Under the pieces are notes generated by a model. It made no database searches, was not told where the DNA came from, and saw nothing but the letters and a program-made list of their open reading frames with translations. From Vulcanimicrobiota bacterium (GTDB lineage Bacteria > Vulcanimicrobiota > JAJTBE01): a stretch of 64,000 nt of DNA. A program made the position numbers and the translations under genes. The stretch spans positions 7,999 to 71,998 of the forward strand of contig JAIORV010000162.1 in the NCBI GenBank assembly GCA_021107945.1, in the 5' to 3' direction. The stretch's first letter is position 1, and every line of letters starts with the position of its first letter. Positions 9,917 through 62,468 of the stretch are shown here, in pieces.

Positions 9917-10133
9917 CTGCTATTTCCAATTTTAACAAACAATGAAAAAACCACTTGTTCGATAGTTTGTTTAATATGGGAATAAGAAAAACAGGAATCA
10001 TTACATGATATTACTCCCCCGGATTTATCCGGGGGATATAAGGAATCCCACTCCCCGTGTATCTCACAAAAACTTTTAGACGCTTCAGCGTCTTCCCGAT
10101 AAGGAATTCCTAACTATAGAGAAAAGAGAAAAT

Positions 10134-11291: not shown

Positions 11292-11558
11292 TTATTCAAT
11301 GCAGAGGACGCAGAGAACGCGAAGGTTTTATATGATTTTCATATTATTTACCACAGAGTTCACAGAGGGCATATAGGTTAGAAGGAATCTATTTTATGAA
11401 TGCCACAAAATCCTCATCTTTGGCATCATAAAAGACCTTGATTTTATATTCAAATAGATTTCTAAATGTTGTACCTCCTGAGTATTGCAAGGAATTCTCC
11501 AATACTATAAGCTTTTTCTATAAAACATTGGTTCCTTTTTCATCAGATGATATCTACT

Positions 11559-14576: not shown

Positions 14577-14652
14577 TAAGTGTTCCCCCAAAAGAAAATT
14601 ATGGTACTATTCGGACATCTCTTGTAGTAAAAAACTATTCAATCCCGATTTC
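14577..14652 (-). promoter_or_regulatory. Conserved about 80-bp leader/promoter block shared by the three kinase paralogs (copy A)
   Basis: CCAAAAGAAAATTATGGTACTATTCGGACATCTCTTGTAGTAAAAAACTATTCAATCCCGATTTCAT aligns with 18168-18250 and 20716-20800. On the coding strand it contains TTGAATAG and CATAAT boxes and a GGGGGA RBS. Confidence 0.45.
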
Positions 14653-14712
14653 ATGCCGTTTCCCGGCGGGTCGGGAGACCCGCCGCTACCCAAATAGGGG
14701 ACGGGTCTGAAT
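14653..14712. ncRNA. About 60-nt conserved hairpin element (candidate small RNA or MITE), copy 1
   Basis: ATGCCGTTTCC-CGGCGGGTC-GGGA-GACCCGCCG-CTACCCAAATAGGGG. The reverse complement of 26281-26340 carries the same element with two compensatory base-pair changes in the 9-bp stem. Confidence 0.4.
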
Positions 14713-15194
14713 GATTATCCTTTTTATGCCCATTTTTATGACATTAATTATACTTCTGTCACTATAACATTACAGTCTTGATTATATCGTTCTATTCCAA
14801 CGGAATATGCCCTTCCTTATTAAAAAGATCCCTTGCAATCTGTAATTCTGAGTGGACTACGAAAGAATTGCTCTAATCCGATGACTTGCTCAAAGACGTG
14901 ATTATATTGATGCTTGTGATTTACAAAGCGAAGAATCCCTCGAATGTTGGCTTGAGATATCACGCAACATGTGTGATGACAGCGTGGACGACTCTCTTGC
15001 GGGAGATCATTCGCTGTGAAAGACATCGGAGGTAAGTAATACCATTTTGGATTCAAATTTGCCGCATGGGCAGAAAGCCGGTAGCTTCGGCGTCCCCGCC
15101 GGAGAAAGTATTGCGCCGAGGGCGGTTGTCCTCGGTTACACGGACTGAATGTATGCAAAATCTTTCAACGATCAGATTTTCAGGATCTGTTTTA

Positions 15195-18167
15195 TTATTC
15201 TCTCGCCCCTTGTTTGCGGAGAAGATTGACTGTGTCGGTATGTCCATTTAGTAAAGCTTCGCGCAGGGGTGTCCTGTCGTTATTGTTTTTCATGTTTACT
15301 TTTGCTCCTTTGGATATAAGGAGCAAAACGATCTCTGTATGATCATCCTGTGCCGCAAAGTGCAGGGGTGTATCTCCGTTTTTGTCCTTTGCTCTTACAT
15401 CTCCTCTCTTGGATATAAGGAGTTTGGCGGTGTCTGTATGGCCAAAAAATGCCGTGTTATGCAGGGGTGTATCTCCGTTATTGTCCTTTGCGCTTACATC
15501 TCCCCCATTGGATATAATGAGCCTGGCAGTGTCGGTATGACCAAAAAATGCCGTTTTGTGCAGGGGCGTATTTCCGTTGTTGTCCTTTGCGCTGACATCT
15601 CCTCCGCTGGATATAATGAGCTTGGCAGTGTCGGTATGTCCATCCGATGCCGCACTGTGCAGGGGTGTCTTTCCATCATTGTCCTTCGCATTCACATTTG
15701 TGCCTTTGGAGATGAGAAGCTCAACGAAGCCGGTGTGCCCTTTTGATGAAGCGTAATGAAGGGTTGTTCTTCCGTCATTATCCTTTGCATTCACATCTGC
15801 ACCTTTGGATATAAGGAGTTTAGCAGTGTCGGTTTTACCTCCAATTGCTGCTTGGTGTAAGGGTGTTCTACCAAGTGAATCCCTGGCATTTATATTTGTT
15901 TTTTTCAATTTAAGATATGGCAAAAGGGCAAAAGCAGTGAATATTAATGCTATAACGGCAAAACAAATTATCACACCCCGGAAAACCCCCTTTTTTCTTA
16001 TTGTCCCACCTTCAGCTGCCCCCTCGGATATGAGGAGTTTGGCGGTGTTGCTATATCCATTATTCATTGCGTAGTATATGGGTGTCTTGCCTAAATTATC
16101 CTTTACATTTACATCTGCACCTTTGGATAAAAGGAGTTTGACAGTGTCGCTTTTATCTTCACTTGCTGCAAAGTGCAGAGGAGTCCGTCCATCGTTGTCT
16201 TTAGCGCCTATATCCGCTTCCTTGGATAAAAGGAGTTTGGCAGTATCGGTATGGCCAAGAAATACCGTTTTATGCAGGGGCGTATCTCCGTTATTGTCCC
16301 TTGCATTTGTATCTGATCCCTTGGCTATAAGGAGCCTGGCGGTATAGACGTGACCATAAAGTGCCGCATAATGCAGAGGTGTTCGTTCATTATTATCTTG
16401 CACATTTACTCTTGCTCCTTTGGACATAAGGAGCCTGGAGGCGTGTGTGTGACCATAAAGTGCAGCAAAGTGCAGAGGTGTCCGTTCACTATTGTCTTTC
16501 ACATCTATTATTGCTTCTTTGGATATAAGGAGCTGGGCAGTGTCGGTCCTGCCTTCAATTGCCGCTCTGTGCAGGGGTGTCTTTCCATCATGGTCCTCCA
16601 TATTCACATCTGCGCCTTTGGATATAAGGAATCTGGAAATGTCGATGCGGTCTTCTATTGCCACTTTGTGCAGGGGAGTACGTCCCAAATTATCTTTAGT
16701 ATTTACATTTGCGCCACTTTGCACAAGGAGTTCAACGATGTCTATATCGCCGTTGAATGCGGCATAGTGCAGGGGTGCTAAATGGTCATTATTCTTCGTA
16801 TTCACTTTTGCCCCCATGGATATAAGGAGTTTGGCAATGCTGAGATGGCTTTCTATTGCCGCTTTGTGTAAGGGTGTACGTCCAAAATTGTCCTTAACAT
16901 TTACATTTGCACCATTGGAAATAAGGAGTTTGGCGGTGTCGGTATGGCCTTCATACATCGCCCAGTGCAAGGGTGTACATCCGTCATTATCCCGCGCATT
17001 TACATTGGCCCCCTGTTTTATATATTCTTTGACCTGGGCAGTCTTGTGAACCATCGCCGCTGAAAAAAAATCATCATACTTATCAAATTTCTTCCTGGGA
17101 TAACCGGGAGGAGGCGAGGGATCCGGAACAGGTGGTGTGGGTTCAGGTTCAGGTGCAGGTGCAGGCTCAGGAGTGGACGTTGGTGTAGCTTCAGGTGTTG
17201 GCGCAGGCTCTTGGGCGGGAGTTGGTGTAGGTTCAGATATTGGCACGGAATCATTTGTTGGGTCCTGCTGTTTGCTTCCATTCAGTATCTCAATGATTTT
17301 ATCAACCGACTCGGGACGGTTGGCGCAGGTTAAATCCACCATGGACATAATAAGATTATCGAGAAATTCGGGAACATTTTCATTGAAGTCTCTCACCTGT
17401 TCGAATGTAAAAAGAGGGCGGGATGGGTCTTCCGGATCAAGCCCGGTAAGGAGAAAATGTATCAAACCTCCCAGGGAGAAAATGTCGTTTTGGGTGCTAT
17501 CATTGCCCCGCAACTGATCGGGAGAAGCATAACCCGGAGTACCTAACATCGTACCTTTTTCTTGGGGTTTAAATATTTTGGCAATTCCAAAATCGACAAA
17601 ATAGAGCTTGCCGTCATTGATTATGATATTTGAAGGCTTTAGATCACGGTAAATAACAGGAGGGTTTTGAGAATGCAGGTAAGATAATATTTCGAGAACT
17701 TGTCGGAAATACCCCATAACTTCATCAATAGGAAGCGGTGGAAGATTTTGTTCCAGATAGCACCCCAGATTCATTCCTTCGATGAATGTCATAACAAGGT
17801 AATGTGATGTTTTTCCGTCGGGATCCTTTTGGGAGAAAAAATTCGTTACTTTGGGAAGGCCTTCATGATGGAGTTTTATCAAAAGTTTTGCTTCCCTCAG
17901 GAACATCTCTTGAAATTTCATCCCGCCTGTGCCCCGACTAAAAGTCACCTGCATTTTCTTGACGGCTACAGTCTCTCCCAGGCGTGTATCAACAGCTCGA
18001 TAGACACAACCCATATTGCCCGACTTTACAATGCATTCAACCTTATATCGGTTGTCCAGAAGCTCAACTTCCCCGGCAGCTTCCGGTGATATATTCGCTC
18101 CGCATTCGTTGCAATATTTCGCCGATGCTTCTTGCTTTTTTCCGCAGACAGTGCAGAAACGATGCAT
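15195..18167 (-). CDS. Zinc-ribbon / Ser-Thr protein kinase / ankyrin-repeat protein, paralog B (one TM helix inside the ankyrin array)
   Basis: MHRFCTVCGKK...YCNECG. Same kinase motifs as paralog A. PEPTPAP linker. About 10 ANK repeats, the TM helix GVIICFAVIALIFTAFALLPYL, then about 7 more ANK repeats. Confidence 0.85.
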   Translation of the reverse strand: MHRFCTVCGKKQEASAKYCNECGANISPEAAGEVELLDNRYKVECIVKSGNMGCVYRAVDTRLGETVAVKKMQVTFSRGTGGMKFQEMFLREAKLLIKLHHEGLPKVTNFFSQKDPDGKTSHYLVMTFIEGMNLGCYLEQNLPPLPIDEVMGYFRQVLEILSYLHSQNPPVIYRDLKPSNIIINDGKLYFVDFGIAKIFKPQEKGTMLGTPGYASPDQLRGNDSTQNDIFSLGGLIHFLLTGLDPEDPSRPLFTFEQVRDFNENVPEFLDNLIMSMVDLTCANRPESVDKIIEILNGSKQQDPTNDSVPISEPTPTPAQEPAPTPEATPTSTPEPAPAPEPEPTPPVPDPSPPPGYPRKKFDKYDDFFSAAMVHKTAQVKEYIKQGANVNARDNDGCTPLHWAMYEGHTDTAKLLISNGANVNVKDNFGRTPLHKAAIESHLSIAKLLISMGAKVNTKNNDHLAPLHYAAFNGDIDIVELLVQSGANVNTKDNLGRTPLHKVAIEDRIDISRFLISKGADVNMEDHDGKTPLHRAAIEGRTDTAQLLISKEAIIDVKDNSERTPLHFAALYGHTHASRLLMSKGARVNVQDNNERTPLHYAALYGHVYTARLLIAKGSDTNARDNNGDTPLHKTVFLGHTDTAKLLLSKEADIGAKDNDGRTPLHFAASEDKSDTVKLLLSKGADVNVKDNLGKTPIYYAMNNGYSNTAKLLISEGAAEGGTIRKKGVFRGVIICFAVIALIFTAFALLPYLKLKKTNINARDSLGRTPLHQAAIGGKTDTAKLLISKGADVNAKDNDGRTTLHYASSKGHTGFVELLISKGTNVNAKDNDGKTPLHSAASDGHTDTAKLIISSGGDVSAKDNNGNTPLHKTAFFGHTDTARLIISNGGDVSAKDNNGDTPLHNTAFFGHTDTAKLLISKRGDVRAKDKNGDTPLHFAAQDDHTEIVLLLISKGAKVNMKNNNDRTPLREALLNGHTDTVNLLRKQGARE

Positions 18168-18250
18168 TAAGACTCCTCCAAAAAATTTGATACTATTCGG
18201 ATATCTCTTTTGATAAAAAACTATTCAATCTCGATTTCATGCCGTTTACG
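18168..18250 (-). promoter_or_regulatory. Conserved leader/promoter block, copy B
   Basis: Aligns with 14577-14652 and 20716-20800. A GGAGGA RBS lies 8 nt upstream of the ATG. Confidence 0.45.
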
Positions 18251-18417
18251 GGTCAATCAGAAGACCGGCATTCATGTTCGGTTAAGGTGTTTTCTGATAG
18301 TATTTACCTGGTAGAGGTTGGCTCCTGAGCAACTTGACAGGGTCATGAAACTGTCAAAACGCCTTAAACACGACGGGCCTCCCGATCCGTCATTGCCCAA
18401 TAAAAGTTCTATTTTAT

Positions 18418-20715
18418 TCAATTTAACGATCCAGGACTTGGCTGAAATTTTTTCTCAGACACCAATCGCTTTACTCCGTTCTTATGAAGAAAGGAAGCTA
18501 TATGGGTATGCCCATTCGATGTAGCATATTGCCGGGGTGTCCAGCCCCTGACGTCTTCCGCATTTACATTTGCGCCTTTGGATACAAGGAGTTTGGCCGT
18601 GTCTTTATGTCCATCCGATGCCGCACCGTGCAGAGGTGTCCATCCATCATTGTCCTTCGCATTCACATTTGCCCCCCTGGATATCAGGAGCTCGATGATG
18701 TCTGTGTGTTCTTTGGATTCCGCCAGGTGCAGAGATACCCAGCCGTTATTTTCCTTCGCATTCACATTTGCTCCCCTGGATATAAGGAGCTTGATGACGT
18801 CGATATGTCCATATCTTGCGGCATAGTGCAGAGGTGTCCAGCCTCTGTTCTCCTTCGCATTCACATTTACACCCTTGGATATAAGGAGCCTGACGACGTC
18901 GATATGTCCATATCTTACCGCATAGTGTAGAAGTGTCCAGCCTTTATTATCCTTAACATTTATATCTGCTCCATTTGACATGAGAAATCTGACGATCTCG
19001 GTATTACCTTGATTTGACGCAAAATGAAGGGGTGTCCATCCGTCATTGTCCTTCGCATTTATATTTGCCCCCCTGGATATAAGGAGCTCGACGATATCGC
19101 TGTGTCCTTTGGATTCCGCCAGATGCAGAGGTGTCCAGTTGCTATTTTCCCTCGCATTCACATTTGCCCCCCTGGATATAAGGGACTTGACGACTTCGAT
19201 ATGTCCATATCTTGCCGCATAGTGCAGAGGTGTCCAGTTGCTGTTTTCCTTCGTATTCACATTTGCACTCTTGGATACAAGGAGCTTGACGATGTCGGCA
19301 TGTCCATATCTTGCGGCATAGTGCAGGGGTGTCCATCCGCTATTTTCCTTTGCGTTTACAAGTGCGTTTTTGGATGTGAGGAGTTTGACGATGTCGGTAT
19401 GGCCTTCTTTAGCCGCTCTATGCAGAAGTGTTCTTCCGTTATTATCCTTTGTGTTTACATACGCGCCCTCGGAGATGAGGAGCCTGACGATGTTTGTATG
19501 TCCATTGAATGTAGCATATTGCAGGGGTGTTACGTTTTTGCTGTCCTTTGCATTTACATCTGCCCCCTGGTTGATATATTCTTCAACTGTCATAATTCTA
19601 TCATTCTTAACCGCCTTGAAAAAATCATCATATCTATCGAACTGCCTTTTAATCAACTGATTCTTGGGAAAATATGAAGGGCCTGATGGGGCGGGATCAT
19701 ATGAAGAAGACAAAGCAGGTTTAGTTGCATTTGCAGGAGATTGCCTGTCACTTGTCAGGTGGCTTGGAGTATTAATCACCGGCGGTTTTGAAACAAGAGA
19801 AGATGCAGAATGCCGTCCTTCACTTCCATCGAGTATCTTAATGATCTGATCAATCGAACCGGGACGGTTGACATTGGACATTTCCACCATGGATAGGATG
19901 AGATTGTCGAGAAATTCGGGAATGTCCTTGTTGGAATTTCTTACCGGTTCGAATGTAAAAAGAGGACGGGATGAGTCTTCGGGATTGAGTCCGGAAAGAA
20001 GGTAATGAATCAGAACTCCAAGCGAATAAATATCGTTTTGCGGGGAATCATTGCCCCGGCATTGGTCAGGAGAAGCATAGCCCCGCGTTCCCCACATTGT
20101 GCCTTTTTGCAGGGGTTTCAATATTTTGGCAATTCCAAAATCAACAAGAAGGAGCCTGCCGTTATTAAACATGATATTTGAAGGCTTCAGATCGCGATAG
20201 ACAACGGGAGGGTTCTGAGAATGCAGGTAAGAAAATATGTCGAGAATCTGCCGGAAAAATCCTATAACTTCATCAAGAGGAAGCGGTGGAATGTTCTTCC
20301 TTAGATAGCATTCCAGATCCACGCCTTCGATGAATGTCATCACAAGGTAATGTGATGTTCTTCCGACGGGATCCTCTTTGGTGAAAAAATCTGTTACCTT
20401 GGGAAGTCCTCCGTGATGGAGCTTCGCCAATAGTTTTGCCTCTCTCAGAAACATTTCCTGAAATTTATTCCCGTCTGTGTCGAAATTATAAGTCGCCTGC
20501 ATTTTTTTGACGGCCACGGTCTCTCCTAGGCGTGTGTCAACGGCCCGATAGACACAGCCCATGTTCCCCGACTTTAATATTCTTTCCACCCTATATCGGT
20601 TGTCCAGAAGTTCAACTTGCCGGGTAATTCCCGGCGACATTTTCGCTCCGCATTGGTTGCAATATTTAGTTTTTGATTTTTGATTTCTTCCGCAGATAGT
20701 GCAGTAATGATCCAT
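18418..20715 (-). CDS. Zinc-ribbon / Ser-Thr protein kinase / ankyrin-repeat protein, paralog C (soluble, no TM helix)
   Basis: MDHYCTICGRN...YCNQCG. Kinase motifs conserved. S/P-rich linker followed by about 11 ANK repeats. Confidence 0.85.
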   Translation of the reverse strand: MDHYCTICGRNQKSKTKYCNQCGAKMSPGITRQVELLDNRYRVERILKSGNMGCVYRAVDTRLGETVAVKKMQATYNFDTDGNKFQEMFLREAKLLAKLHHGGLPKVTDFFTKEDPVGRTSHYLVMTFIEGVDLECYLRKNIPPLPLDEVIGFFRQILDIFSYLHSQNPPVVYRDLKPSNIMFNNGRLLLVDFGIAKILKPLQKGTMWGTRGYASPDQCRGNDSPQNDIYSLGVLIHYLLSGLNPEDSSRPLFTFEPVRNSNKDIPEFLDNLILSMVEMSNVNRPGSIDQIIKILDGSEGRHSASSLVSKPPVINTPSHLTSDRQSPANATKPALSSSYDPAPSGPSYFPKNQLIKRQFDRYDDFFKAVKNDRIMTVEEYINQGADVNAKDSKNVTPLQYATFNGHTNIVRLLISEGAYVNTKDNNGRTLLHRAAKEGHTDIVKLLTSKNALVNAKENSGWTPLHYAARYGHADIVKLLVSKSANVNTKENSNWTPLHYAARYGHIEVVKSLISRGANVNARENSNWTPLHLAESKGHSDIVELLISRGANINAKDNDGWTPLHFASNQGNTEIVRFLMSNGADINVKDNKGWTLLHYAVRYGHIDVVRLLISKGVNVNAKENRGWTPLHYAARYGHIDVIKLLISRGANVNAKENNGWVSLHLAESKEHTDIIELLISRGANVNAKDNDGWTPLHGAASDGHKDTAKLLVSKGANVNAEDVRGWTPRQYATSNGHTHIASFLHKNGVKRLVSEKKFQPSPGSLN

Positions 20716-20800
20716 TAAGATAAGACTCCCCCAAAAATTATGATGTTATTCGGACATCTCTTGTGGTGAAAACTATTCAATCACGATTCCATAACTATTC
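20716..20800 (-). promoter_or_regulatory. Conserved leader/promoter block, copy C
   Basis: Aligns with copies A and B. Confidence 0.45.
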
Positions 20801-25971: not shown

Positions 25972-26280
25972 TTTTCATTAACCCCCTTGATAAAATAAAT
26001 TATTAAAGGCTCCTCAAAACAAGACCAGGGATAGGAGCCAGCAAAGTAAATAAAATTAAAATCATTGAAATATCACCTTGTATATTTCAATTTCTGCTTC
26101 CAAAATCCTCCGGATCATGGTTCGTGATAAAAAAAAGATTGTACCCATTAAGACTAACCGCAGCAAGAGAGGCTCCCAGCCTCGATTCTAATGGCAGTCC
26201 GCCTCGATATTCGTGGTAAGATGCTACTCCCATAAAGGAGGTTTTAATGTTTTAAAGATTGATATTTAAAGTGTAATTAT

Positions 26281-26340
26281 TCAGACCGCCCCACTATTTG
26301 GGTAGAGGCTGGTCTCCCGACCAGCCTGGAAACGGCATAA
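26281..26340. ncRNA. About 60-nt conserved hairpin element, copy 2 (reverse orientation relative to copy 1)
   Basis: rc = TTATGCCGTTTCC-AGGCTGGTC-GGGA-GACCAGCCT-CTACCCAAATAGTGGGG. The stem is preserved by compensatory changes relative to 14653-14712. Confidence 0.4.
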
Positions 26341-26366
26341 AATAGGGGTTGGGAAACCCCTACAGA
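26340..26366. repeat. REP-like element in reverse orientation (rc = TCTGTAGGGGTTTCCCAACCCCTATTT)
   Basis: Matches TGTAGGAGGGGTTTCCTAACCCCGATAAA at 37618-37649. Confidence 0.6.
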
Positions 26367-26385
26367 ATGGGTCTGAATACATACT

Positions 26386-31907: not shown

Positions 31908-31950
31908 GAAAAACCCGATAATTTATCCGTAAATTTAATCGGGTTTTTTT
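31908..31950 (+). terminator. Rho-independent terminator
   Basis: AAAAACCCGATAATTTATCCGTAAATTTAATCGGGTTTTTTTT. Confidence 0.6.
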
Positions 31951-31959
31951 TATAAATTA

Positions 31960-33939
31960 ATGAGTAAGTTAAAAAAAGAATTCAAATTGATTGACGTCTT
32001 TGCCATTTCAACCGGGGCGATGATCAGCTCAGGCTTATTTGTGCTTCCCGGCATGGCGTATTCCGTAGCAGGGCCTGCAATGATATTGGCATATCTTGTA
32101 GCGGGATTAATGTATATCCCTGCAATGCTCAGTTATGCCGAGCTTTCAACGGCAATGCCGCGCTCCGGAGGCAGCTACTTTTTCGTGGATAGAAGCATGG
32201 GACCGATCCCCGGAACAATTGGCGGGATGTCTGAGTGGTTATCCCTTATTTTGAAAAGCTCATTTGCACTAATTGGAATTGGCGCATTTGCCACAATATT
32301 CTTTCCCGGAATGGCGGAGATACACATTAAGCTTATTGCAACAGCTTTTTGTGTGTTTTTTGTGATACTCAATATCCATGGCGTAAAAGAGGCAGGCAAG
32401 TTACAAGTTGCCCTTGTTATAGGACTTATCGTTATTCTTGTCCTGTATGTAGTTGAGGGATTCTCTAAGCTGGACCCAATGAATTTCTCTCCGTTCATGC
32501 CCCAGGGCAAACTCTCAATCCTTTCAGCCGCAGGACTGGTGTATATTTCATTTGCAGGACTTACCAAAGTTGTGAATATGGGTGAGGAGATAAAAAACCC
32601 GGGACGAAATATTCCTCTGGGCATGGCATTGGCATTTATAACGGTTATTATAATATATGTATTAGTTACCATTGTAACTGTGGGAATTGTGCCCGGCAGC
32701 GAGTTGTCAGGTAATCTTGCCCCCCTTGCTCTGGGAGGCAAAAAAATGATGGGAACTTTCGGAGAGATCCTCATCACGGTTGCCGCCCTGTTTGCATTTG
32801 CAACAACAGCAAACGCAGGCATTATGGCCGCTTCAAGGACGCCGGTCTCTATGAGCAGGGACGGCCATTTACCCACGTTTTTACACAAAATCCATCCAAA
32901 ATATCACACTCCCCGTAATGCAATACTTCTTACCGGGACAATCATGATAGCATTTATACTTCTACTGGATATCCGGACATTTGTAAAAACAGCTTCAGTC
33001 GTCATGCTCATTCTTCTTACAATGATATGTATTGCTGTTATCGTGATGAGAGAGAGTAAACTCTATAATTATAAGCCCATATTTCGCTCACCCTTTTATC
33101 CGTATGTTCAGATAATAGGAATCCTCGCGTATTCTTACCTTCTTCTCACAATCGGTGTGAAGCCGCTGGTAATGACGGCAATTCTTTTATTCGCAGGCTT
33201 TATCTGGTACTGGATTTATGCCAGGATCCGGATAAACAGGGAATCCGCCCTTGTACACGTGATAGAAAGGTTCATGGATACAAAGTATGACAGAGACCTG
33301 GCTCAGGAAAAGCTCGCCACGGAATTGAAAGAAATCGTCAAGGAGCGAGACGAGGTGGTAGAAGATCTGCTTGACAGGCTTGTGACAAATGCAACGGCCA
33401 TTGAGCTTGAAGATGGTATTACGAGAGATGAATTCTTCAAACTTGTATCGGAGCAATTCGCCGATAGATACCAGATTGAAGCTCGGGAGTTATTTGAACA
33501 TCTGCAAAAAAGAGAAGCGGAGTCAACATCCGAGATTTTACCGGGACTTGCCATTCCTCATATTATTATCGACGGGAAATGTGAATTTTCATTGCTAATG
33601 GCTCGAAGTAAGGAAGGAATTGATTTCTCACCGGGAATGAAACCCGCACATGCCATATTTGTCTTTATCGGGACAAAGGAAATGAGGTCCCTGTATCTCA
33701 GATCCCTTGTTGCGATAACTGAAATTGCTCAGCAAAAGGATTTCGAAGAATTCTGGAGGAACGCAAGAGATGAGGAGGAGCTTCGTAATATTATATTAAT
33801 GGGAGAGAGAAAGAGGGTCCACATGATAAACTGCCTGCATTGCCCCGAGGACGCTCTTTTTGAAGAAAAGAAATACTGCCCCATATACTATGATGAAGAA
33901 GGAAAGGTCAATAGAGGGAAAGGGGAAACGGGAAGTTGA
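31960..33939 (+). CDS. APC-superfamily amino acid permease with a roughly 220-aa cytoplasmic C-terminal domain
   Basis: 12 predicted TM helices (GAMISSGLFVLPG...). The soluble C-terminal region is acidic. Confidence 0.8.
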   Translation: MSKLKKEFKLIDVFAISTGAMISSGLFVLPGMAYSVAGPAMILAYLVAGLMYIPAMLSYAELSTAMPRSGGSYFFVDRSMGPIPGTIGGMSEWLSLILKSSFALIGIGAFATIFFPGMAEIHIKLIATAFCVFFVILNIHGVKEAGKLQVALVIGLIVILVLYVVEGFSKLDPMNFSPFMPQGKLSILSAAGLVYISFAGLTKVVNMGEEIKNPGRNIPLGMALAFITVIIIYVLVTIVTVGIVPGSELSGNLAPLALGGKKMMGTFGEILITVAALFAFATTANAGIMAASRTPVSMSRDGHLPTFLHKIHPKYHTPRNAILLTGTIMIAFILLLDIRTFVKTASVVMLILLTMICIAVIVMRESKLYNYKPIFRSPFYPYVQIIGILAYSYLLLTIGVKPLVMTAILLFAGFIWYWIYARIRINRESALVHVIERFMDTKYDRDLAQEKLATELKEIVKERDEVVEDLLDRLVTNATAIELEDGITRDEFFKLVSEQFADRYQIEARELFEHLQKREAESTSEILPGLAIPHIIIDGKCEFSLLMARSKEGIDFSPGMKPAHAIFVFIGTKEMRSLYLRSLVAITEIAQQKDFEEFWRNARDEEELRNIILMGERKRVHMINCLHCPEDALFEEKKYCPIYYDEEGKVNRGKGETGS

Positions 33940-33941
33940 TT

Positions 33942-34040
33942 TGTAGGAGGGACGTCCCCGTCCCGATAAATGGAAAATGGAAAATGGATGTTGGAAAATG
34001 GATGACGGATAACGGCTCTCGTTTCCCACGTCCCGGCTAA
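33942..34040. repeat. REP-like element, copy 3, plus an adjacent GGAAAATGGA microsatellite, in a convergent intergenic region
   Basis: TGTAGGAGGGACGTCCCCGTCCCGATAAA is identical to 10941-10969. It is followed by TGGAAAATGGAAAATGGATG... and GTTTCCCACGTCCCGG, which resembles 10996-11030. Confidence 0.8.
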
Positions 34041-36034
34041 CCGCACTTGGAATAGCCACAGTGTTGGCATACGGAGCATGCTCCCACGAGAATCGTGCCC
34101 TGACCGCATTCATGACATACTATTTCTTTAACTTCAGTCATCATGGGTATATCGAGGGTCTCACCTTCATCGTCCGTCCCGGTATTCCCATTTTCAACAT
34201 CTGTTTTTACACAGACAGACTTTGTTGCCTCATCCGACTCAATATCATCATCCTGCCCGGAGGTCGAATCTCCCATGACTATTACCTGTCCCTCTCTGCT
34301 TCCGTCCCTATAGACGGTAATTCCCTTGAGGTTGTTTCTATGGGCCATCATGTAGATATGACCAACATCTTCTTTTGTAGCGTTCGCGGGTAGGTTTATT
34401 GTCTTTGATACACTCATATCAACATGCTTTTGAAATGACGCCTGGATTAGGACATGCCTTTCCCCGGCAATATCATGCGACGTTACAAACAACTTTCTTA
34501 TATGTTCCGGTATTTCATCAAAATTTTGTATAGTCCCGGTTCTTGCAAGTTTAATCACTAGGTCTTTCGAATAAAACCCTTCTTTTTTTGCCATCTCTTC
34601 AAAGGTGGGGTGAATCTGTAAAAGCTTTTTGTCTCCAAGAACATTTCTCTCGAAGCATACACCGAAAAGAGGCTCAATACCCGGGGAGCACCCTGCAATT
34701 ATCGAGAGAGTGCCTGTGGGAGCGATACTTGTGATTGTTGCATTCCTTATGGTTGTAGCAGGGAAGAAGGTGGATTTTCCCCAGTTCGGGAAGCAACCCC
34801 TCTCTTTTGCCAATTCATTTGAAGCTTTTCTGCCCTCTTTCGAAATAAATTCCATTACCCTGTCCGCTATTTTGAGGGCAAATTCATCTTTATATGAGAT
34901 TCCCAGGAGTATAAGCATGTCGGCAAATCCCATAATCCCGAGACCAATTTTACGGTTCCCTCTGGTTTTTTGCTTTATTTTCGGGATTTGCGGTACATAT
35001 TCATTGACATCAATGACGTTATCAAGGAAACGCACGGCGAGCTTTACTGTTTGAGCGAGATGAGCGTAATCAATTGAACGGTTCTTTACAAATCTGCTGA
35101 GATTTATGGACCCCAGGTTGCAGGCCTCGAAAGGCAGAAGGCAAGCTTCGCCGCATGGATTTGTTGATTCAATCCTCCCCAGCTTTGGTGTCGGATTGTC
35201 AGAGTTTATCCTGTCAAGAAACAGTATGCCGGGCTCTGCATTCTTCCAGGCATTGGTTACTATTTTATCCCAGACGGTGCTGGCTTTGAGAGAGTCTGAT
35301 TTCTTTCCTGAGCGGGGATTGTAAAGATCATAATCGGAATTGTTTTTCAGGGCGTCCATAAACTCGTCGGTAATTGCCACTGATATGTTGAAATTATAGA
35401 AATCTCCCTCCGAGAGCTTGGCATCGATAAAATCCAATATATCCGGGTGATCAATTCGCAATACCCCCATATTTGCTCCCCTGCGGCGACCTCCCTGTTT
35501 CACGGTTTCTGTTGCCTGGTTGAAGACCCTCATAAATGAAATGGGACCGCTCGATACGCCGTTTGTGGTCCTGACGCGATCACCTGCGGGACGTAACCTT
35601 GAAAAGCTATATCCCACACCTCCACCGCTTTTTTGTATGAGAGCCGCTTGTTTTACAGCATCGAATATCTCGGGCATCGAGTCCCCCACAGGTAAAACAA
35701 AGCAGGCGGAAAGTTGACCCTCATCTCTTCCGGCATTCATCAGGGTGGGAGAATTGGGGAGAAAGACCAGGTTGACCATCATATCATAAAACTTCTGGGC
35801 ATATTCTTCCATTTTATTACGATCTCCATATTGGAGCTCCGCAATTGAAACGGTGCTTGCCACCCGGTGGAACATCTCCCGGGGGGTTTCAACCACTTCA
35901 TTTTTGAGATTCTTTTTTAAATACCTTGCCCGAAGTACTGTTATGGCATTGTCCGTAAGCTCGGGTTCTTTATTCGACTTTATCGGATTAATTTCATCAA
36001 ATAAGAGGGGTAATTCCAAATCGTAACTTCCCAT
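34037..36034 (-). CDS. nrdJ: Adenosylcobalamin-dependent ribonucleoside-diphosphate/triphosphate reductase (class II) with a C-terminal zinc ribbon
   Basis: TNPCGEACLLPFEACNLGSINLSRF active-site loop and conserved class II blocks. C-terminal CHECG...CSVCQHCG. An ATG at 36034 has an AGGAGA RBS; the track start at 36046 is a TTG. Confidence 0.88.
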   Translation of the reverse strand: MGSYDLELPLLFDEINPIKSNKEPELTDNAITVLRARYLKKNLKNEVVETPREMFHRVASTVSIAELQYGDRNKMEEYAQKFYDMMVNLVFLPNSPTLMNAGRDEGQLSACFVLPVGDSMPEIFDAVKQAALIQKSGGGVGYSFSRLRPAGDRVRTTNGVSSGPISFMRVFNQATETVKQGGRRRGANMGVLRIDHPDILDFIDAKLSEGDFYNFNISVAITDEFMDALKNNSDYDLYNPRSGKKSDSLKASTVWDKIVTNAWKNAEPGILFLDRINSDNPTPKLGRIESTNPCGEACLLPFEACNLGSINLSRFVKNRSIDYAHLAQTVKLAVRFLDNVIDVNEYVPQIPKIKQKTRGNRKIGLGIMGFADMLILLGISYKDEFALKIADRVMEFISKEGRKASNELAKERGCFPNWGKSTFFPATTIRNATITSIAPTGTLSIIAGCSPGIEPLFGVCFERNVLGDKKLLQIHPTFEEMAKKEGFYSKDLVIKLARTGTIQNFDEIPEHIRKLFVTSHDIAGERHVLIQASFQKHVDMSVSKTINLPANATKEDVGHIYMMAHRNNLKGITVYRDGSREGQVIVMGDSTSGQDDDIESDEATKSVCVKTDVENGNTGTDDEGETLDIPMMTEVKEIVCHECGQGTILVGACSVCQHCGYSKCG

Positions 36035-36257
36035 GGCTTGAATCAATTCTCCTTTTTATATCTATTTATATCTATTTGTAGCAAAGACCACAGAGCCCCC
36101 ATTTTATTCACATTCTTTGCGTTAAAACCAACCCTTATTCATCCTCCGGGCTCCGATTCCACTGCAGATCGTAAAGAATACAGGTTGTTGAGTTGGTCCG
36201 ACATCTAAACCCGGGGCGAGGGATCTTATATAATTTCCATTCTCTATATATAATTTC

Positions 36258-37577: not shown

Positions 37578-37591
37578 TGATTTGTATTTAT

Positions 37592-37680
37592 TCACCGCAA
37601 AGACCACAAAGAATTTTTGTAGGAGGGGTTTCCTAACCCCGATAAACCCTTTGCGTCCTTTGCTTCTTTGCGGTTAATTT
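37592..37680. repeat. Composite hairpin element: triple-heptamer arms CCGCAAAG-ACCACAAAG / CTTTGCGTC-CTTTGCTTC-TTTGCGG around an internal REP-like core
   Basis: The arms are reverse complements of each other. The core TGTAGGAGGGGTTTCCTAACCCCGATAAA belongs to the same family as the 10941 and 33942 elements. Confidence 0.7.
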
Positions 37681-37763
37681 TAATCATCCAAATATTTACC
37701 CACATAATATAGAGAAGAGCTGAATAAATTCTCTGCGGACTCCGCGATCTCCGCGGTTAATAA

Positions 37764-39080
37764 TTACCCCGAATAAAACCCCAGCGCAGCTATCGTGACA
37801 TTTGAAAATCCCATTGGATCCACACACTGGCGATACTCGAGCAGTCTGCCGTAATCGGCATCCATACATTTCATCATTGTATAGAGAGGTGAAAGTCCGC
37901 ATACCCGCCTTTTCTCCTGGTCTTTTATCACATCGGCGAAGAAACCGTCGGCGTCCATTTTTTCTACAAGTCCAATGCTTTTAAGCTCATCTTCTTCCAA
38001 AGACTTCATCTGTGTCAGGGTGGGAGCTATGAGATCGCCGAATGCAAGCCCGACATGGGCAAAATCAATTCCTGAAATAAACGCAGGCTTATATCCGCCG
38101 GACTTGATTGTCTTTTTCATGGCAGATATAAATTCCCTCACCTTTGGCTCATCCATGGGATTTATACCTTTTATACCGAAATCGTCGAATGAATGAACAA
38201 GAACCGGCACTATCCTTATGTCCCTGTCAGGGAATATGTATTTCAACATAACTGCCTGGAACTCGATTGAATGCTCGGTTCTGTGGAGATATTCGTCCTG
38301 GTGATAGTCGGTTTTGCAGTAGCTTGTTAATTTGTCAATGAAGTCCTTGTCTGTTGGAATGTCACCCAATGGAGTCTTGAATGTCTTTTTTGTAAGTGCA
38401 ATCAGGTTGTCAGCGGAATGATGGGATGTTCCAAATATGATAAAAAGATTGGCGTCCGATTTTTTTAACTCCCTGTATGCAAACCCGTATGTTCTGTTGC
38501 CCCGTTGGAAGTCGATATGGGGCGCGGCAATCCCGACAGGAATATCGTCAGGGTGTTCATCTTCCGGGAGGTCAATAAAAAAATCGCTCAATTCTTCTCG
38601 AAGCTCTTCAGGATTGTCCGAGTACCCTTTTCCCGCAAGAGATGCTTCTCTGTAATCCTGCTTCCCAAACTCATCATTTAAAAATTCCATGTATTTGCGG
38701 TATCTGTCATTTTCAAGGAGCAGGGCGGCATCGAGCTCGGCCATGATAGACCTGATTTTATCGGAGAATATGAGTCTTCCGAATTTGCGGTTATATTCCA
38801 CCTGGATTTCAGAAGTTTTATGCTTGCCGTCAAATCGTGATATTATAAAGAAAACATCGGGCGGAACCATTAGCATCTTATCCGTGAGTGAGGCCGGATC
38901 CCTTATCAGGATCATGTCCATATTCTGGAAATTTATAGGAACAGCTTCAATATGCCTTATGAGGGGATATTCCTCCTCATGTTTAAGAGTTCTTTTTTCA
39001 ATATCGGGATCTTTCAAATCGATATCTCCTTCAAAAGGGAAATGGGATGATTTCTTACACCACGAAGCCACGGAGTTCAC
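37764..39080 (-). CDS. MEMO1-family (AmmeMemoRadiSam system protein B-like) protein with a roughly 160-aa N-terminal extension
   Basis: IAAPHIDFQRGNRTYGFAY and IIFGTSHH match the MEMO1 H-x-D and GPSHH blocks. The annotated start overlaps a hairpin repeat, so the true start is uncertain. Confidence 0.55.
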   Translation of the reverse strand: MNSVASWCKKSSHFPFEGDIDLKDPDIEKRTLKHEEEYPLIRHIEAVPINFQNMDMILIRDPASLTDKMLMVPPDVFFIISRFDGKHKTSEIQVEYNRKFGRLIFSDKIRSIMAELDAALLLENDRYRKYMEFLNDEFGKQDYREASLAGKGYSDNPEELREELSDFFIDLPEDEHPDDIPVGIAAPHIDFQRGNRTYGFAYRELKKSDANLFIIFGTSHHSADNLIALTKKTFKTPLGDIPTDKDFIDKLTSYCKTDYHQDEYLHRTEHSIEFQAVMLKYIFPDRDIRIVPVLVHSFDDFGIKGINPMDEPKVREFISAMKKTIKSGGYKPAFISGIDFAHVGLAFGDLIAPTLTQMKSLEEDELKSIGLVEKMDADGFFADVIKDQEKRRVCGLSPLYTMMKCMDADYGRLLEYRQCVDPMGFSNVTIAALGFYSG

Positions 39081-39140
39081 GAAGGAAATATCCAGTTTAT
39101 TATATTAAAAACTCCGTGTTCTCCGTGACTTCGTGGTAAA
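39043..39140. repeat. Composite hairpin element: CCACGAAG-CCACGGAG-TTCACGAAGG ... AT-rich loop ... CTCCGTG-TTCTCCGTG-ACTTCGTGG-TAA
   Basis: 26-nt imperfect inverted arms built from three heptamer units. Same architecture as 37592-37680 and 62395-62468. Confidence 0.7.
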
Positions 39141-41305: not shown

Positions 41306-41489
41306 ATTAAAGGTACCGCCATATCAGAATGGTATTTTTATATATTTGACACATATTATACAGAAAAGTTCCTGTTTATGCAAATTAATTTCCGGATATT
41401 TATTCATCGCAAAGACCACAAAGATTTTAATCTTACCACGAAGCCAAGAAGGACACGAAGAAATGTATGGGACTCCATTCTTTGTTCTC

Positions 41490-46705: not shown

Positions 46706-48907
46706 TCAGGAAACAGGCAATTCGGGGATATTAATTTCCGGTAATTCTGGAATATCGGAATCTTCCGGGTGATTTTCATCTATTTCCTGTATCTCCGGAA
46801 TATCGGAATCATAGGAACTCTCCGGGTGACTTTCATCTATTTCCGGTAATTCCGGAATATCGGAATCGTCAGAATCATCGGAACCCTGCGGGTGACTTTC
46901 ATCACTATATTCTTCCATGTCCTCCGGCAATTCCAGTAATTCAATTTCATCCGATTCATCCGACTCATCAGGCGTAATCTCCTCATCAGAAATTGCGGGA
47001 GTGTCTTTTTCTTCCAACTCTACAAAATTCTCCGGTATTTCATATGACGGTGGAGATTCCATCTCTTCCGGCATATCTGGGACCTCAGGCACTATGGGCA
47101 TTTCTTCTTCTAATGTTTCCATCTCTTTACCAAATACATATCCGTCAATGAATTTCATCATTCTCTCAAAAAGTGCGACACGAGTCTCAAGTCTTGCCAT
47201 TGAATGACCTTCCGCTTCGAAAAGTTCTTCTTCAAAAACTTTTCCTTCCATGGAAAGCTTTTCTCGAAGCTGTTCCATTTCATCTACGGGAACTCTTGGG
47301 TCGTTTTTTCCATAGAGAATTAATAATGGACAATTGATATTTTCAACGAAGTTAATCGGTGACCTGTCCTGATAATAATCAGGATCTTCTTCTATAGGTT
47401 TGAATCCATACTTCTTATCCAATATCGGTTTTAACCAGGATGCTGAATTATTATAGAACGATTCCAGATTTACCGGTCCCATAAAGTTTATGGCCGCCGC
47501 CCAGAGTTCAGGTTTTTTTGTTGCGGCCATCATTGTCATATAGCCGCCATAGCTTCCCCCTGCGACAATTACTTTTTCAACATCCGCGTTTGGATCTTCT
47601 TTGAGGAATTCCACGGCATGCGAAATATCCTGGAGATCATCGCCGCCCCAATCGTGGAACACCTTGTTCTCAAACTCCGTTCCATATCCTGTTGACCCCC
47701 TGACGTTGGGAGCCAGGACGGCAATGTCGTTGAGGAGGAATAATTGAATGAAGGGATTCCAACTGTTGAAATGCTGATGTGTGGGTCCTCCATGAATCCA
47801 GATAAGAACCGGGTACTTTTCGACATTCTCCGGCTTATAATAAAGTGCTGGAATTTCGAGTTCATCGAAAGATTTATATCTAATTCTTTCGGGCTTTACG
47901 AAGTGATCGGGCTGTAGTCCGAAGATGGTGGAATCTGTAATTTTCCTGAATGATTTTTGTTCTTTTATAAAAATCTCGGCAGGCTTGTTTGGAGTTGAAA
48001 GTAGCGACGCAATTTTATCATCGTTGTTTGAATATCTTAAACAGGCACATAGGTAGCCCTCGGGTGTTATCCTTCTTGCTGATTTTGGAGGATAATCCCA
48101 TTCAAATGCGGTTAAATGTGCATCTTCATTTTCAATATATGCGAAACGGTCTCCCTTGTGATTCCATTTTGCAAAATGCCTTTCACATTTTTTCTCCGGC
48201 ATCCACATGGTCTTCCGGGTCTCAACCTCCATAAGCACCACATTCTTTGTTCCTTTTGAGTCCGATGTGAAAGCAATGGTCTTGGAATCGGGAGAGAAAT
48301 GCGGTCCAGTGTTCTCTCCGCCGAGGCCCGCTGTCATATTTGAAACTTTCAGTGTATCCAGGTTAACGATACAGATGTCGGCTTTCAACTTATCCTGGAA
48401 ACTGGTATATGCTATTTGTTTTCCGTTTTCTGCCCAGTTGAGTTCCATCTTGAGATTCTTGGTGTCTGTCAGCCAAAAAAGTGCTTCAGTATCTATGTCC
48501 AGGGCTACTATATTATATTCCCCGTCTTTTTCCGCAATAAACCCAATCCTTGAGCTATCCGGCGACCAGTCAAAAAATGGAAGTGAAATCTTGATATCTT
48601 CCGTAATACATCTGGGAGTTCCGCCACTGGTGGAAAGTAATAATATCTTGTAATTTTCCTTTCCGCAATAGTCAACACATATAGCCATAGTCTTGCCGTC
48701 GGGGGAAAGCTTGATAGCTTTGACATCTCCCTCGTCAAGAACAGCCATTAATCTTGGGTATCCTCCTTTTGCGGGGATCGCCCAGACTCTATAATACTTT
48801 CCCAGGTTTGTTACATAAAAAACGAAATCGTCTTCCTTGCTCCATTGAAGATCGAGAATCGTCTTGTTTGCCGCCAGGTGTTTTGCAGTTATTTCACTTT
48901 TCTCCAT
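46706..48907 (-). CDS. S9-family serine peptidase (beta-propeller plus alpha/beta hydrolase) with an acidic repetitive C-terminal tail
   Basis: Nucleophile elbow VIVAGGSYGGYM. A propeller-like N-terminal half. The tail is ...DSDIPELPEIDESHPE... encoded by about 57-bp tandem repeats. Confidence 0.85.
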   Translation of the reverse strand: MEKSEITAKHLAANKTILDLQWSKEDDFVFYVTNLGKYYRVWAIPAKGGYPRLMAVLDEGDVKAIKLSPDGKTMAICVDYCGKENYKILLLSTSGGTPRCITEDIKISLPFFDWSPDSSRIGFIAEKDGEYNIVALDIDTEALFWLTDTKNLKMELNWAENGKQIAYTSFQDKLKADICIVNLDTLKVSNMTAGLGGENTGPHFSPDSKTIAFTSDSKGTKNVVLMEVETRKTMWMPEKKCERHFAKWNHKGDRFAYIENEDAHLTAFEWDYPPKSARRITPEGYLCACLRYSNNDDKIASLLSTPNKPAEIFIKEQKSFRKITDSTIFGLQPDHFVKPERIRYKSFDELEIPALYYKPENVEKYPVLIWIHGGPTHQHFNSWNPFIQLFLLNDIAVLAPNVRGSTGYGTEFENKVFHDWGGDDLQDISHAVEFLKEDPNADVEKVIVAGGSYGGYMTMMAATKKPELWAAAINFMGPVNLESFYNNSASWLKPILDKKYGFKPIEEDPDYYQDRSPINFVENINCPLLILYGKNDPRVPVDEMEQLREKLSMEGKVFEEELFEAEGHSMARLETRVALFERMMKFIDGYVFGKEMETLEEEMPIVPEVPDMPEEMESPPSYEIPENFVELEEKDTPAISDEEITPDESDESDEIELLELPEDMEEYSDESHPQGSDDSDDSDIPELPEIDESHPESSYDSDIPEIQEIDENHPEDSDIPELPEINIPELPVS
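46720..46910. repeat. About 57-bp tandem DNA repeats encoding the acidic (E/D-S-D-I-P-E-L-P-E-I) C-terminal tail of the peptidase
   Basis: Repeated CCGGTAATTCCGGAATATCGGAATC...CCGGGTGACTTTCATCTATTTCC units. Confidence 0.7.
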
Positions 48908-60172: not shown

Positions 60173-60245
60173 GCGGAAATAGCTCAGATGGTAGAGCATT
60201 AGCTTCCCAAGCTGAGGGTCGCGGGTTCGAATCCCGTTTTCCGCT
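60173..60245 (+). tRNA. tRNA-Gly (anticodon CCC)
   Basis: Cloverleaf GCGGAAA/TTTCCGC acceptor stem, anticodon loop TTCCCAA, T-loop TTCGAAT. Confidence 0.85.
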
Positions 60246-60271
60246 TTTTATTCTGAGTGCAGAAATAGCAG

Positions 60272-60347
60272 GGCGACGTGGCCGAGTGGCTAAGGCAGCG
60301 GTCTGCAAAACCGTTTATCACCAGTTCGAATCTGGTCGTCGCCTCCA
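60272..60347 (+). tRNA. tRNA-Cys (anticodon GCA), with CCA encoded
   Basis: Acceptor GGCGACG/CGTCGCC, anticodon stem-loop GCGGT-CTGCAAA-ACCGT, T-arm ACCAG-TTCGAAT-CTGGT, 3' TCCA. Confidence 0.8.
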
Positions 60348-60353
60348 TACTAA

Positions 60354-60427
<74 letters not shown>

Positions 60428-62394: not shown

Positions 62395-62468
62395 GCGGAG
62401 TTCGCAGAGGATAACCGGAGAAAAAACATTGATACCTCTGTGTTCTCTGTGTCCTCTGTGGTAAAAAA
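62395..62468. repeat. Composite hairpin element: CGCAGAG-ATCGCGGAG-TTCGCAGAGG ... CCTCTGTG-TTCTCTGTG-TCCTCTGTGG-TAA
   Basis: Same triple-heptamer inverted-arm architecture as 39043-39140 and 37592-37680. Confidence 0.7.

Follow-up and report, generated by a model that had tools for sequence, protein, structure and literature searches.

The described systems closest to the repeats considered here are the GTAG-headed repetitive extragenic palindromes (REPs), which are tied to REP-associated tyrosine transposases (RAYTs). One REP class of pseudomonads and xanthomonads follows the formula GTRG GA S(6) L(2) S(6) GAN, for example GTAGGAGCGCGCTTGCGCGCGATG in Xcam (PMC4690160, Table I), and the GTAG-1 and GTAG-2 types are marked by an unpaired dinucleotide after GTAG and by a conserved 3-bp motif on the opposite side (PMC3733652). 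The E. coli RAYT reads the hairpin together with the GTAG on single-stranded DNA, which it cleaves and rejoins (PMC3479197; summarised in PMC4690160). In the published REPIN-RAYT systems the RAYT is encoded in single copy (PMC3116915; PMC5581495), and inverted doublets of REPs (REPINs) are held to be the mobile unit. The REP survey of PMC3733652 further reports that head-to-tail dimers are rare in most genomes, that REPtrons may be lost by deletion, that some REPs (conv-REPs) are placed between convergent genes, that unrelated stem-loops and TIRs can adjoin GTAG-1 units, and that in-frame REPs encoding 20-82 residues occur in Opitutus, Thauera, and Rickettsia.

The window, i.e., the whole stretch of DNA that was analysed, comprises 64,000 nucleotides of contig JAIORV010000162.1. 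The five repeat copies listed in a preliminary description of this DNA were all recovered at their positions, including the one in reverse orientation near 26340. The core had been described there as either a GGGACGTCCC palindrome or a GGGGTT hairpin. Instead, there is one architecture, a 6-bp stem with a TCCY tetraloop: GGGACGTCCC followed by CGTCCC parses as GGGACG-TCCC-CGTCCC, which has the same layout of 6-bp stem and 4-nt TCCY loop as GGGGTT-TCCT-AACCCC. The REP unit, so corrected, is GTAG-GA-stem6-TCCY-stem6-GAT(AAA). The five copies and one weak candidate are as follows, with the scores of a covariance model (R1) described below.

10942-10969, plus strand: REP copy, GTAGGAGGGACGTCCCCGTCCCGATAAA (GTAG-GA-GGGACG-TCCC-CGTCCC-GATAAA); 45.1 bits, E = 2e-8.
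11045-11069, plus strand: head-shortened REP copy, GT----GGGACGTCCCCGTCCCGATGAAA; 22.2 bits, E = 0.003.
26338-26365, minus strand: REP copy in reverse orientation, TGTAGGGGTTTCCCAACCCCTA (TGTAG-GGGTT-TCCC-AACCC-CTA); 16 bits, E = 0.064.
33943-33970, plus strand: REP copy, 28-nt core identical to 10942-10969; 44.5 bits.
37619-37646, plus strand: REP copy with a different, compensated stem, GTAGGAGGGGTTTCCTAACCCCGATAAA (GTAG-GA-GGGGTT-TCCT-AACCCC-GATAAA); 44.6 bits.
15081-15105, plus strand: weak candidate of uncertain membership, GTAG-ctt-CGGCG-TCCC-CGCCG-GA; 9.1 bits, E = 2.3.

The copy at 11045 reads GT[4 nt missing]GGGACG-TCCC-CGTCCC-GATGAAA, its head being GTGG after the loss of 4 nt, and the minus-strand copy 26338-26365 has a 5-bp stem and an altered tail. 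The GTAG head is present at 10942, 33943, 37619, and 26302 on the plus strand and at 26363 and 14689 on the minus strand. The unpaired GA and the GAT tail are found in 10942, 33943, 37619, and 70 variants of other loci. The interval 33942-34040 is a REP over 33943-33970, while the rest of it, 33971-34036, is a heptamer-periodic tract (GGAAAAT...). The supposed degenerate relative at 9995-10100 has no match to the covariance model at E ≤ 10 and consists of two unrelated small hairpins and a CCCGATAAGG word.

Separate 10-mers of the repeat are weakly enriched, barely above chance, and this speaks for a chance similarity or a repeated peptide motif as the source of the copies. The composite structure speaks against it. 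Perfect TCCN-loop hairpins number 10 in the window versus 2.0 in shuffles, and those with a GTAG or GTGG head number 7 versus 0.07 expected, with a shuffle maximum of 2. A generic scan for GTAG followed by any hairpin showed no enrichment (13 versus 12.2 in shuffles); the TCCN-loop subset alone is enriched. Model R1, which was built from 52 distinct variants from other loci and the window and run with filters off, matched exactly the five listed copies in the window, with E values of 2e-8, 2.5e-8, 2.7e-8, 0.003, and 0.06; three of the five are training rows of R1, so that their matches are partly by construction. A peptide motif is ruled out because three of the five copies are intergenic. Considering the excess of the composite and the model E values of about 2e-8, it is scarcely credible that chance or peptide repetition produced these elements.

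A pattern scan of one genome per species, using the pattern GTAGGAGGGNNNTCCNNNNCCCGATAA with the inner stem left free, returned at least 39 loci. Poribacteria, WOR-3, Stahlbacteria, Calditrichaceae, Zipacnadia, and a gammaproteobacterial MAG are among the matches listed, and the REP class occurs in at least seven labelled lineages. Fourteen of the 19 distinct variants among the matches listed pair at all three free positions (16 triplet combinations), whereas full pairing by (1/4)^3 would be expected in about 0.3 of 19; G-T pairs are shown by two of the 19. The pairing at the free positions is direct evidence that the hairpin, rather than its sequence, is conserved. In the 52-variant alignment, which was pre-filtered for at most one mismatch, 94.9% of the cells are paired versus 27-56% in slid registers. 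With a looser scan of all loci collected, 70 variants in 160 instances fit GT[AG]GGA-stem-loop-stem-GA[TC].

The repeats are not restricted to the window, since further copies are present elsewhere on its contig and unrelated metagenome contigs carry the identical variant. The window is part of ENA contig NODE_12_length_85996 (ERZ26872897), which was read for a further 4.3 kb before the start (L040) and 8.4 kb after the end (L043), giving 76.7 kb of same-contig sequence in total. Eight copies were counted in the window, five in the 4.3 kb before its start, and none in the 8.4 kb after its end. A four-unit tandem REP array with a 48-nt period is located between convergent genes at L040 14340-14540, about 2.2 kb outside the window. 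The tandem arrays (this one, and one with a 69-nt period in L001) were also considered as CRISPRs; this reading was dropped because their 'spacers' are identical. The 28-nt core is identical at three loci (10942, 33943, and L040 14505), and the sites at 10942 and 33943 are 83% identical over 71 nt, which argues for recent copying. In a metagenome scan a window-specific 22-mer was found, identical, on eight contigs, and one of these (L050) has the same layout of REP, heptamer hairpin, and head-shortened REP as 10942-11069. In independent Logan assemblies of the source organism, contigs stop at window positions 33967 (L044) and 33961 and 37614 (L058), each of which is at or inside a REP, as expected for multi-copy repeats. 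Strains lacking a REP (empty sites) were sought in these Logan contigs, which stop at the REPs and do not span them.

In other genomes this REP class flanks RAYT genes. A Poribacteria locus (L031) contains a 165-aa ORF with HVH and YENPV (Y..NPV) motifs, and on both sides of this ORF there are many GTAGGAGGGAATTCC.ATTCCCGAT copies and an inverted partner. RAYT homologues of 153 aa are encoded in a Desulfobacterales MAG (L053) and on three metagenome contigs (L056, L059, and L060), and all four genes are flanked by inverted GTGGGAGCGGCTTCCAGCCGCGAT-type pairs. Three of these proteins (L031, P0237 of L056, and P0232 of L053) were scored against NCBIfam NF047646, 'REP-associated tyrosine transposase', and gave 121-138 bits at a cut-off of 80; they also match Pfam PF01797 (Y1_Tnp). 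The Poribacteria RAYT is 31% identical over 86 residues to an E. coli RAYT. The protein collection contains about 1,200 relatives, most of them encoded on short contigs.

The GTAG or GTGG head, the unpaired GA, the compensated GC-rich stem, the GAT tail, and the presence of the class beside RAYTs elsewhere uphold the REP-family reading of the preliminary description. The window elements are thus probably REPs of the GTAG-headed class (GTAG-1/2 type), tied to a RAYT. Like the GTAG-1 and GTAG-2 REPs of Pseudomonas, Xanthomonas, Thauera, and Thioalkalivibrio, they have the head, the GA, a GC-rich S6, and GAT (PMC3733652); common to both are also compensatory sub-families, arrangements as singletons, dimers, and clusters, and linkage to RAYTs, which for the window class is seen in other genomes. 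They differ in several respects. The loop is a conserved 4-nt TCCY here but L(2) in the published GTAG-1/2 class formula (PMC4690160), the stems of the window class begin with GGG, and the window lineage conserves an AAA after the GAT of the tail. Head-to-tail tandems are prominent (10942/11045 and the L040 array), many copies have periodic low-complexity arms, and the hosts bear labels of uncultivated groups (an Eremiobacteraeota-labelled MAG, Poribacteria, WOR-3, Stahlbacteria, Calditrichaceae, and Zipacnadia).

A RAYT presumably exists, or existed, in the source genome and acts on the copies. The window and its two contig extensions, 76.7 kb together, yielded no RAYT-like ORF, either by tblastn (with the Poribacteria RAYT and an E. 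coli RAYT as queries) or by a RAYT HMM on six-frame ORFs. The same HMM on six-frame ORFs of 474 kb of loci and the metagenome scan with the window-specific 22-mer gave no RAYT attributable to the source organism, and among the best 120 hits of each of two protein searches none was named for it ('Candidatus Eremiobacteraeota bacterium'). This result would be in accord with the elements being orphan or decaying REPs, i.e., genuine units whose matching RAYT is gone from the genome and whose copies are passive relics, kept where they are harmless or useful. The four missing head nucleotides of 11045, the shortened stem and altered tail of 26338, and the documented deletion of REPtrons (PMC3733652) point the same way. 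However, these 76.7 kb probably represent no more than about 1-2% of the genome, so that the absence of a single-copy gene from them means little. Moreover, the identical cores at three loci and the 71-nt stretch common to two of them argue against decay. It is therefore considered unlikely that the copies are orphans of a lost RAYT.

A second REP type, absent from the preliminary description, has the form GGGTAG-S9-TCCC-S9-GGAAACGG. The following features belong to it or include it.

14656-14692, minus strand: S9-type REP, GGGTAG-CGGCGGGTC-TCCC-GACCCGCCG-GGAAACGG.
26302-26335, plus strand: S9-type REP, GTAG-AGGCTGGTC-TCCC-GACCAGCCT-GGAAACGG, with a 9-bp stem and no GA spacer.
26278-26377, plus strand: REPIN-like unit of two inverted REPs closed by the outer stem ATTCAGACC / GGTCTGAAT.

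Since the S9 type (26302 and 14689) lacks the GA and the GAT, it is a different GTAG type. The copy at 14656-14692 lies upstream of the kinase-ankyrin gene (11778-14591) and has the flank ATTCAGACC..TATTTGGGTAG in common with 26278-26335. Beyond the window, a third S9-type copy is found at L040 16441, where the contig ends after another 42 nt. In the pair 26302(+)/26338(-) the two REPs are inverted with their GTAG ends outward. It is the sole REPIN-like unit in the window, and its halves are of different REP types. The DNA fold of 26276-26382 has an energy of -25.9 kcal/mol (z = -5.9), and the MFE and centroid structures concur.

The likeness to the REPIN-RAYT systems (PMC3116915; PMC5581495) consists in the short GTAG-headed hairpin repeats and this one inverted doublet (26278-26377) closed by an outer stem. 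The differences are that one window site alone is an inverted doublet, with halves of different types, and that the search of 76.7 kb of the source genome gave no RAYT. The likeness to the E. coli REP/BIME system with TnpA-REP (RAYT; PMC3479197) is the GTAG head, read with a DNA hairpin by an HUH/Y1 enzyme; the enterobacterial REPs, unlike those of the window, have longer bulged stems and no GA/GAT frame. Two further points count against the REP-RAYT reading. Most of the window copies are singletons (33943 and 37619) or head-to-tail (10942/11045), not inverted doublets, and two of the five listed copies are intragenic, which is atypical for REPs, yet documented.

Larger tracts accompany the intergenic copies at 33943 and 37619.

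33971-34036, plus strand: heptamer-periodic tract (period 7, score 0.78), reaching up to the nrdJ stop codon at 34037-34039 on the minus strand.
37594-37676, plus strand: composite element in which the REP at 37619 is enclosed by the mutually paired low-complexity arms ACCGCAAAGACCACAAAGAA / CTTTGCGTCCTTTGCTTCTTTGCGGT.

The copy at 33943 starts 3 nt past the permease stop codon (33937-33939), and together with the heptamer tract it makes up the whole 97-nt gap that separates the permease gene from the convergent nrdJ gene. The tract reads GGAAAAT GGAAAAT GGATGTT GGAAAAT GGATGAC GGATAAC, followed by a short complementary segment. The copy at 37619 is located in the 186-nt gap from the stop of a Memo-like gene to the start of a GDSL-lipase gene. 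Both genes are on the minus strand, and the copy is antisense to both. The DNA fold of 37588-37682 has an energy of -17.9 kcal/mol (z = -5.4). Thus 33943 is placed between convergent genes, 37619 and the pair 26302/26338 between unidirectional genes, and the copies in ORF 10134-11291 are the exceptions. The placement near stops and between convergent or unidirectional genes fits the REP survey (PMC3733652).

The position of 33943, 3 nt past a stop codon and between convergent genes, also suits an RNA-level element, in which the hairpins would be selected as 3'-end stabilisers, terminators, or a protein-binding RNA motif, the REP likeness being secondary. Such roles have been suggested for REPs in the literature, where G-T pairing is also pointed out (PMC3733652); here it is seen in the two of 19 variants mentioned above. 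Against it, no terminator-like T run was found in 33500-34500, and the REP tails are GATAAA, so that the reading of 33943 as an intrinsic terminator was rejected. Rfam 15 matched tRNAs alone, in the window at the gathering threshold and in eight related loci at E ≤ 0.1, and thus gave no family for the hairpins. The elements occur in both orientations relative to transcription, 37619 being antisense and another pair coding. What is conserved, namely the single-stranded GTAG-GA head and the GAT tail, is exactly what a RAYT recognises, and RAYT genes are physically linked to the class. Selection at the RNA level as the primary cause is therefore held to be improbable. On the REP reading, 33943 and its heptamer tract would lie at the 3' end of one or both convergent transcripts, so that a putative effect on 3'-end stability is plausible, although the sequence gives it no direct support.

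The remaining two listed copies, at 10942 and 11045, form a head-to-tail tandem, in frame and stop-free, inside the radical-SAM ORF 10134-11291. Between them is the following feature.

10970-11042, plus strand: heptamer-periodic spacer between the intragenic REPs (period 7, score 0.74).

The spacer consists of (GGANNNY)x4, a short loop, and (NNNTCCC)x5; it can fold into an imperfect hairpin, and its translation product belongs to the linker. The copy 10942-10969 corresponds to codons 270-279 (CRRDVPVPIN), and the predicted peptide of the translated REP is CRRDVPVPINGEWK. Two of the three frames of the REP sense strand are closed, by a TAG in the head and a TAA in the tail, and the ORF takes the sole open frame; the C-terminal conserved motif (GCPDCNRPLYNE...) stays in frame downstream of the insert. 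The insert is repeat-derived, because its 28-nt core is identical to that of the intergenic copy 33943 and the two sites are so similar over 71 nt.

The radical-SAM protein matches, at 100% identity, an NCBI/ENA protein of a MAG labelled 'Candidatus Eremiobacteraeota bacterium'. The insert site is a linker that is missing from distant radical-SAM homologues and variable among close ones (alignment A1). The closest homologues are at most 55% identical and have their own, unrelated variable linkers. In an AlphaFold2 model of the protein (mean pLDDT 76.7), the REP-encoded residues 270-312 have pLDDT values of 38-56, belong to a disordered linker, and sit between the confident barrel and the C-terminal hairpin domain. 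It may be envisaged that the tandem REP pair landed in the only stop-free frame of a variable linker and was tolerated there as about 43 extra residues.

This pair resembles the cases of Opitutus terrae, Thauera, and R. conorii in that palindromic repeats are in frame within coding genes (PMC3733652). The intragenic palindrome clusters of Thauera and R. conorii encode 43-82 residues, compared with about 43 here (PMC3733652). In contrast, the host gene here is a biotin/lipoyl-synthase-like radical-SAM gene, whereas DNA repair and replication genes are emphasised in PMC3733652, and the insert includes a heptamer-periodic spacer, unlike the intragenic repeats described there.

Periodic tracts of 7-9 nt are found in 6.8% of the REP flanks versus 0.5% of control windows, a 13-fold enrichment (Mann-Whitney p = 1e-7). 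The enrichment is seen around the REPs of WOR-3, of Stahlbacteria, of the window lineage, and of two RAYT loci of the 153-aa kind (L056 and L060), i.e., in several lineages that bear the labels of different phyla. The window has nine periodic tracts versus about 0.7 in shuffles, and the strongest two adjoin REPs. The tracts often pair across a REP, and in L056 a 42-nt low-complexity pair, 86% complementary, brackets the entire RAYT unit. A similar low-complexity hairpin without a REP is located at 39059-39137 (z = -8.4).

These arms raise the question of a composite element, not yet described, in which a REP is joined to long complementary arms of 7-9-nt periodicity and the bare REP is the core. 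The 13-fold enrichment in the flanks, the arms pairing around the REP at 37594-37676 (z = -5.4), the 86%-complementary pair around the RAYT unit of L056, and the recurrence in L050 of the layout of REP, heptamer hairpin, and REP are in its favour. However, most REP copies, including those of all the Poribacteria loci, have no periodic arms, low-complexity hairpins also occur without a REP (e.g., 39059-39137), and TIRs and stem-loops beside GTAG-1 units are already known (PMC3733652). It is accordingly unlikely that REP and arms make up one such element, with the arms made or used by the same machinery. Because of the REP-free hairpins and the known stem-loops and TIRs, the arms are regarded as an open side observation and not as a new system. 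As a speculation, RAYT-linked DNA processing, such as iterative copying of the REP tail into nested hairpins, might produce the arms or use them as its substrate. A separate speculation concerns the frame GTAGGAG...TCCN...CGATAA, which is nearly identical in at least seven labelled lineages: it may have spread horizontally, or a single RAYT specificity may be very deeply conserved. Neither the larger unit of REP and arms nor such an explanation of the shared frame is given more than a small chance of being correct.

For the preferred reading, that of RAYT-linked REPs, a working scheme may be proposed by analogy with the known systems. The single-stranded REP, e.g., GTAGGAGGGACGTCCCCGTCCCGAT, would be the substrate and, judging from the family as a whole, would fold into a hairpin of 6 bp capped by a TCCY loop. 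The enzyme would be a RAYT of the HUH/Y1 kind, whose single gene would lie at another place in the genome. It would recognise the hairpin together with the 5' GTAG, and its cleavage and rejoining would spread or maintain the units, whether singly, in tandem arrays, or as inverted pairs. Further effects would vary with the landing site of each copy.

The literature already describes GTAG REPs from several phyla, REPs within genes, and placement between convergent genes, and the current understanding of REPs is unchanged by these findings. New here are the host lineages, the TCCY loop and its conservation, the arrangement in tandem, and the periodic arms. All the lineages have one recognition frame in common, GTAGGAG-hairpin(TCCN)-CGAT, which therefore provides a simple probe for such systems in metagenomes. 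The REPs have practical consequences as well: they fragment assemblies, the contigs breaking exactly there, and they can inflate or alter gene calls through REP-encoded peptides in ORFs and spurious ORFs over REP clusters. As to the biology of the family, the REP-RAYT partnership is extended to poorly known, mostly uncultivated lineages, and the in-frame pair in the radical-SAM gene is a clean example of selfish DNA turned into protein sequence.

Several long palindromic or low-complexity elements of the window lie outside its REP copies. A near-perfect palindrome of 34 nt (AACCCGATAATTTATCCGTAAATTTAATCGGGTT; 31912-31945), located just upstream of the permease gene, has the word CCCGATAA in common with the REP tail and is devoid of the GTAG head. 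The Memo-like ORF has at its 5' end a long hairpin without a REP (39059-39137), which consists of periodic low-complexity sequence, ACCACGAAGCCACGGAGTTCACGAAG, and its complement, with a DNA fold z of -8.4. Tracts in the same style, each one-sided, are found at four other sites:

11300-11370, one-sided tract
36075-36120, one-sided tract
41405-41460, one-sided tract
62429-62465, one-sided tract

Periodic low-complexity sequence also occurs around RAYT genes. In the metagenome contig L056, a 42-nt inverted repeat of this kind (CCAGTGATCAGT...; 636-677 and 1325-1366, 86%-complementary) encloses a complete REP-RAYT-REP unit, and a similar arm is present upstream of the RAYT gene in a second metagenome contig, L060.

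In a Poribacteria locus (CBDBFT010000001.1, 5327-5535), two REP types form an alternating tandem array whose period is 69 nt, with an ORF directly downstream. The spacing is CRISPR-like, yet the sequences between the REPs are identical. A RAYT homologue recovered in the Poribacteria-seeded search, P0212, carries the in-frame insert 'IAGQDAPPTGEGHITGQDAPPTG' (alignment A2, columns ~135-160). The PPT motif of this insert corresponds to CCTCCTAC, which reads as the REP head GTAGGAGG on the opposite strand; translation of the transposase gene therefore seems to run through a REP pair.

Other features of the window and of the contig extension past its end are as follows:

11778-14591, minus strand, first of three tandem genes, kinase-ankyrin gene
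15195-18167, minus strand, second tandem gene, probable kinase-ankyrin paralogue
18418-20715, minus strand, third tandem gene, probable kinase-ankyrin paralogue
14595-14683, 18181-18269 and 20734-20772, conserved block of ~90 nt upstream of each of these genes
46706-48907, minus strand, ORF of 733 aa
46734-46913, imperfect tandem repeat in this ORF (reference unit 57 nt, copy starts 9-48 nt apart)
60173-60427, cluster of three tRNA genes (Rfam, 65-70 bits)
5979-6619 of the extension, nucleotidyltransferase/HepT-like toxin-antitoxin pair and HicB gene

The Pfam scan, run on the first of the three tandem genes alone, identified its product as a Ser/Thr protein kinase fused to a long ankyrin-repeat array; the other two are probably its paralogues, judging by their common repeat families. 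In the repeat search, the ankyrin arrays comprise 99-nt units, with 32+ copies in repeat family D1.

Where the same organism was assembled independently from other sequencing runs, the contigs stop at a REP copy or within one: the Logan contig L044 ends at window position 33967, and L058 at 37614 and 33961. The end of L040, the contig's extension before the window start, is likewise among these breaks. REP copies limit MAG contiguity in the lineage of this organism.
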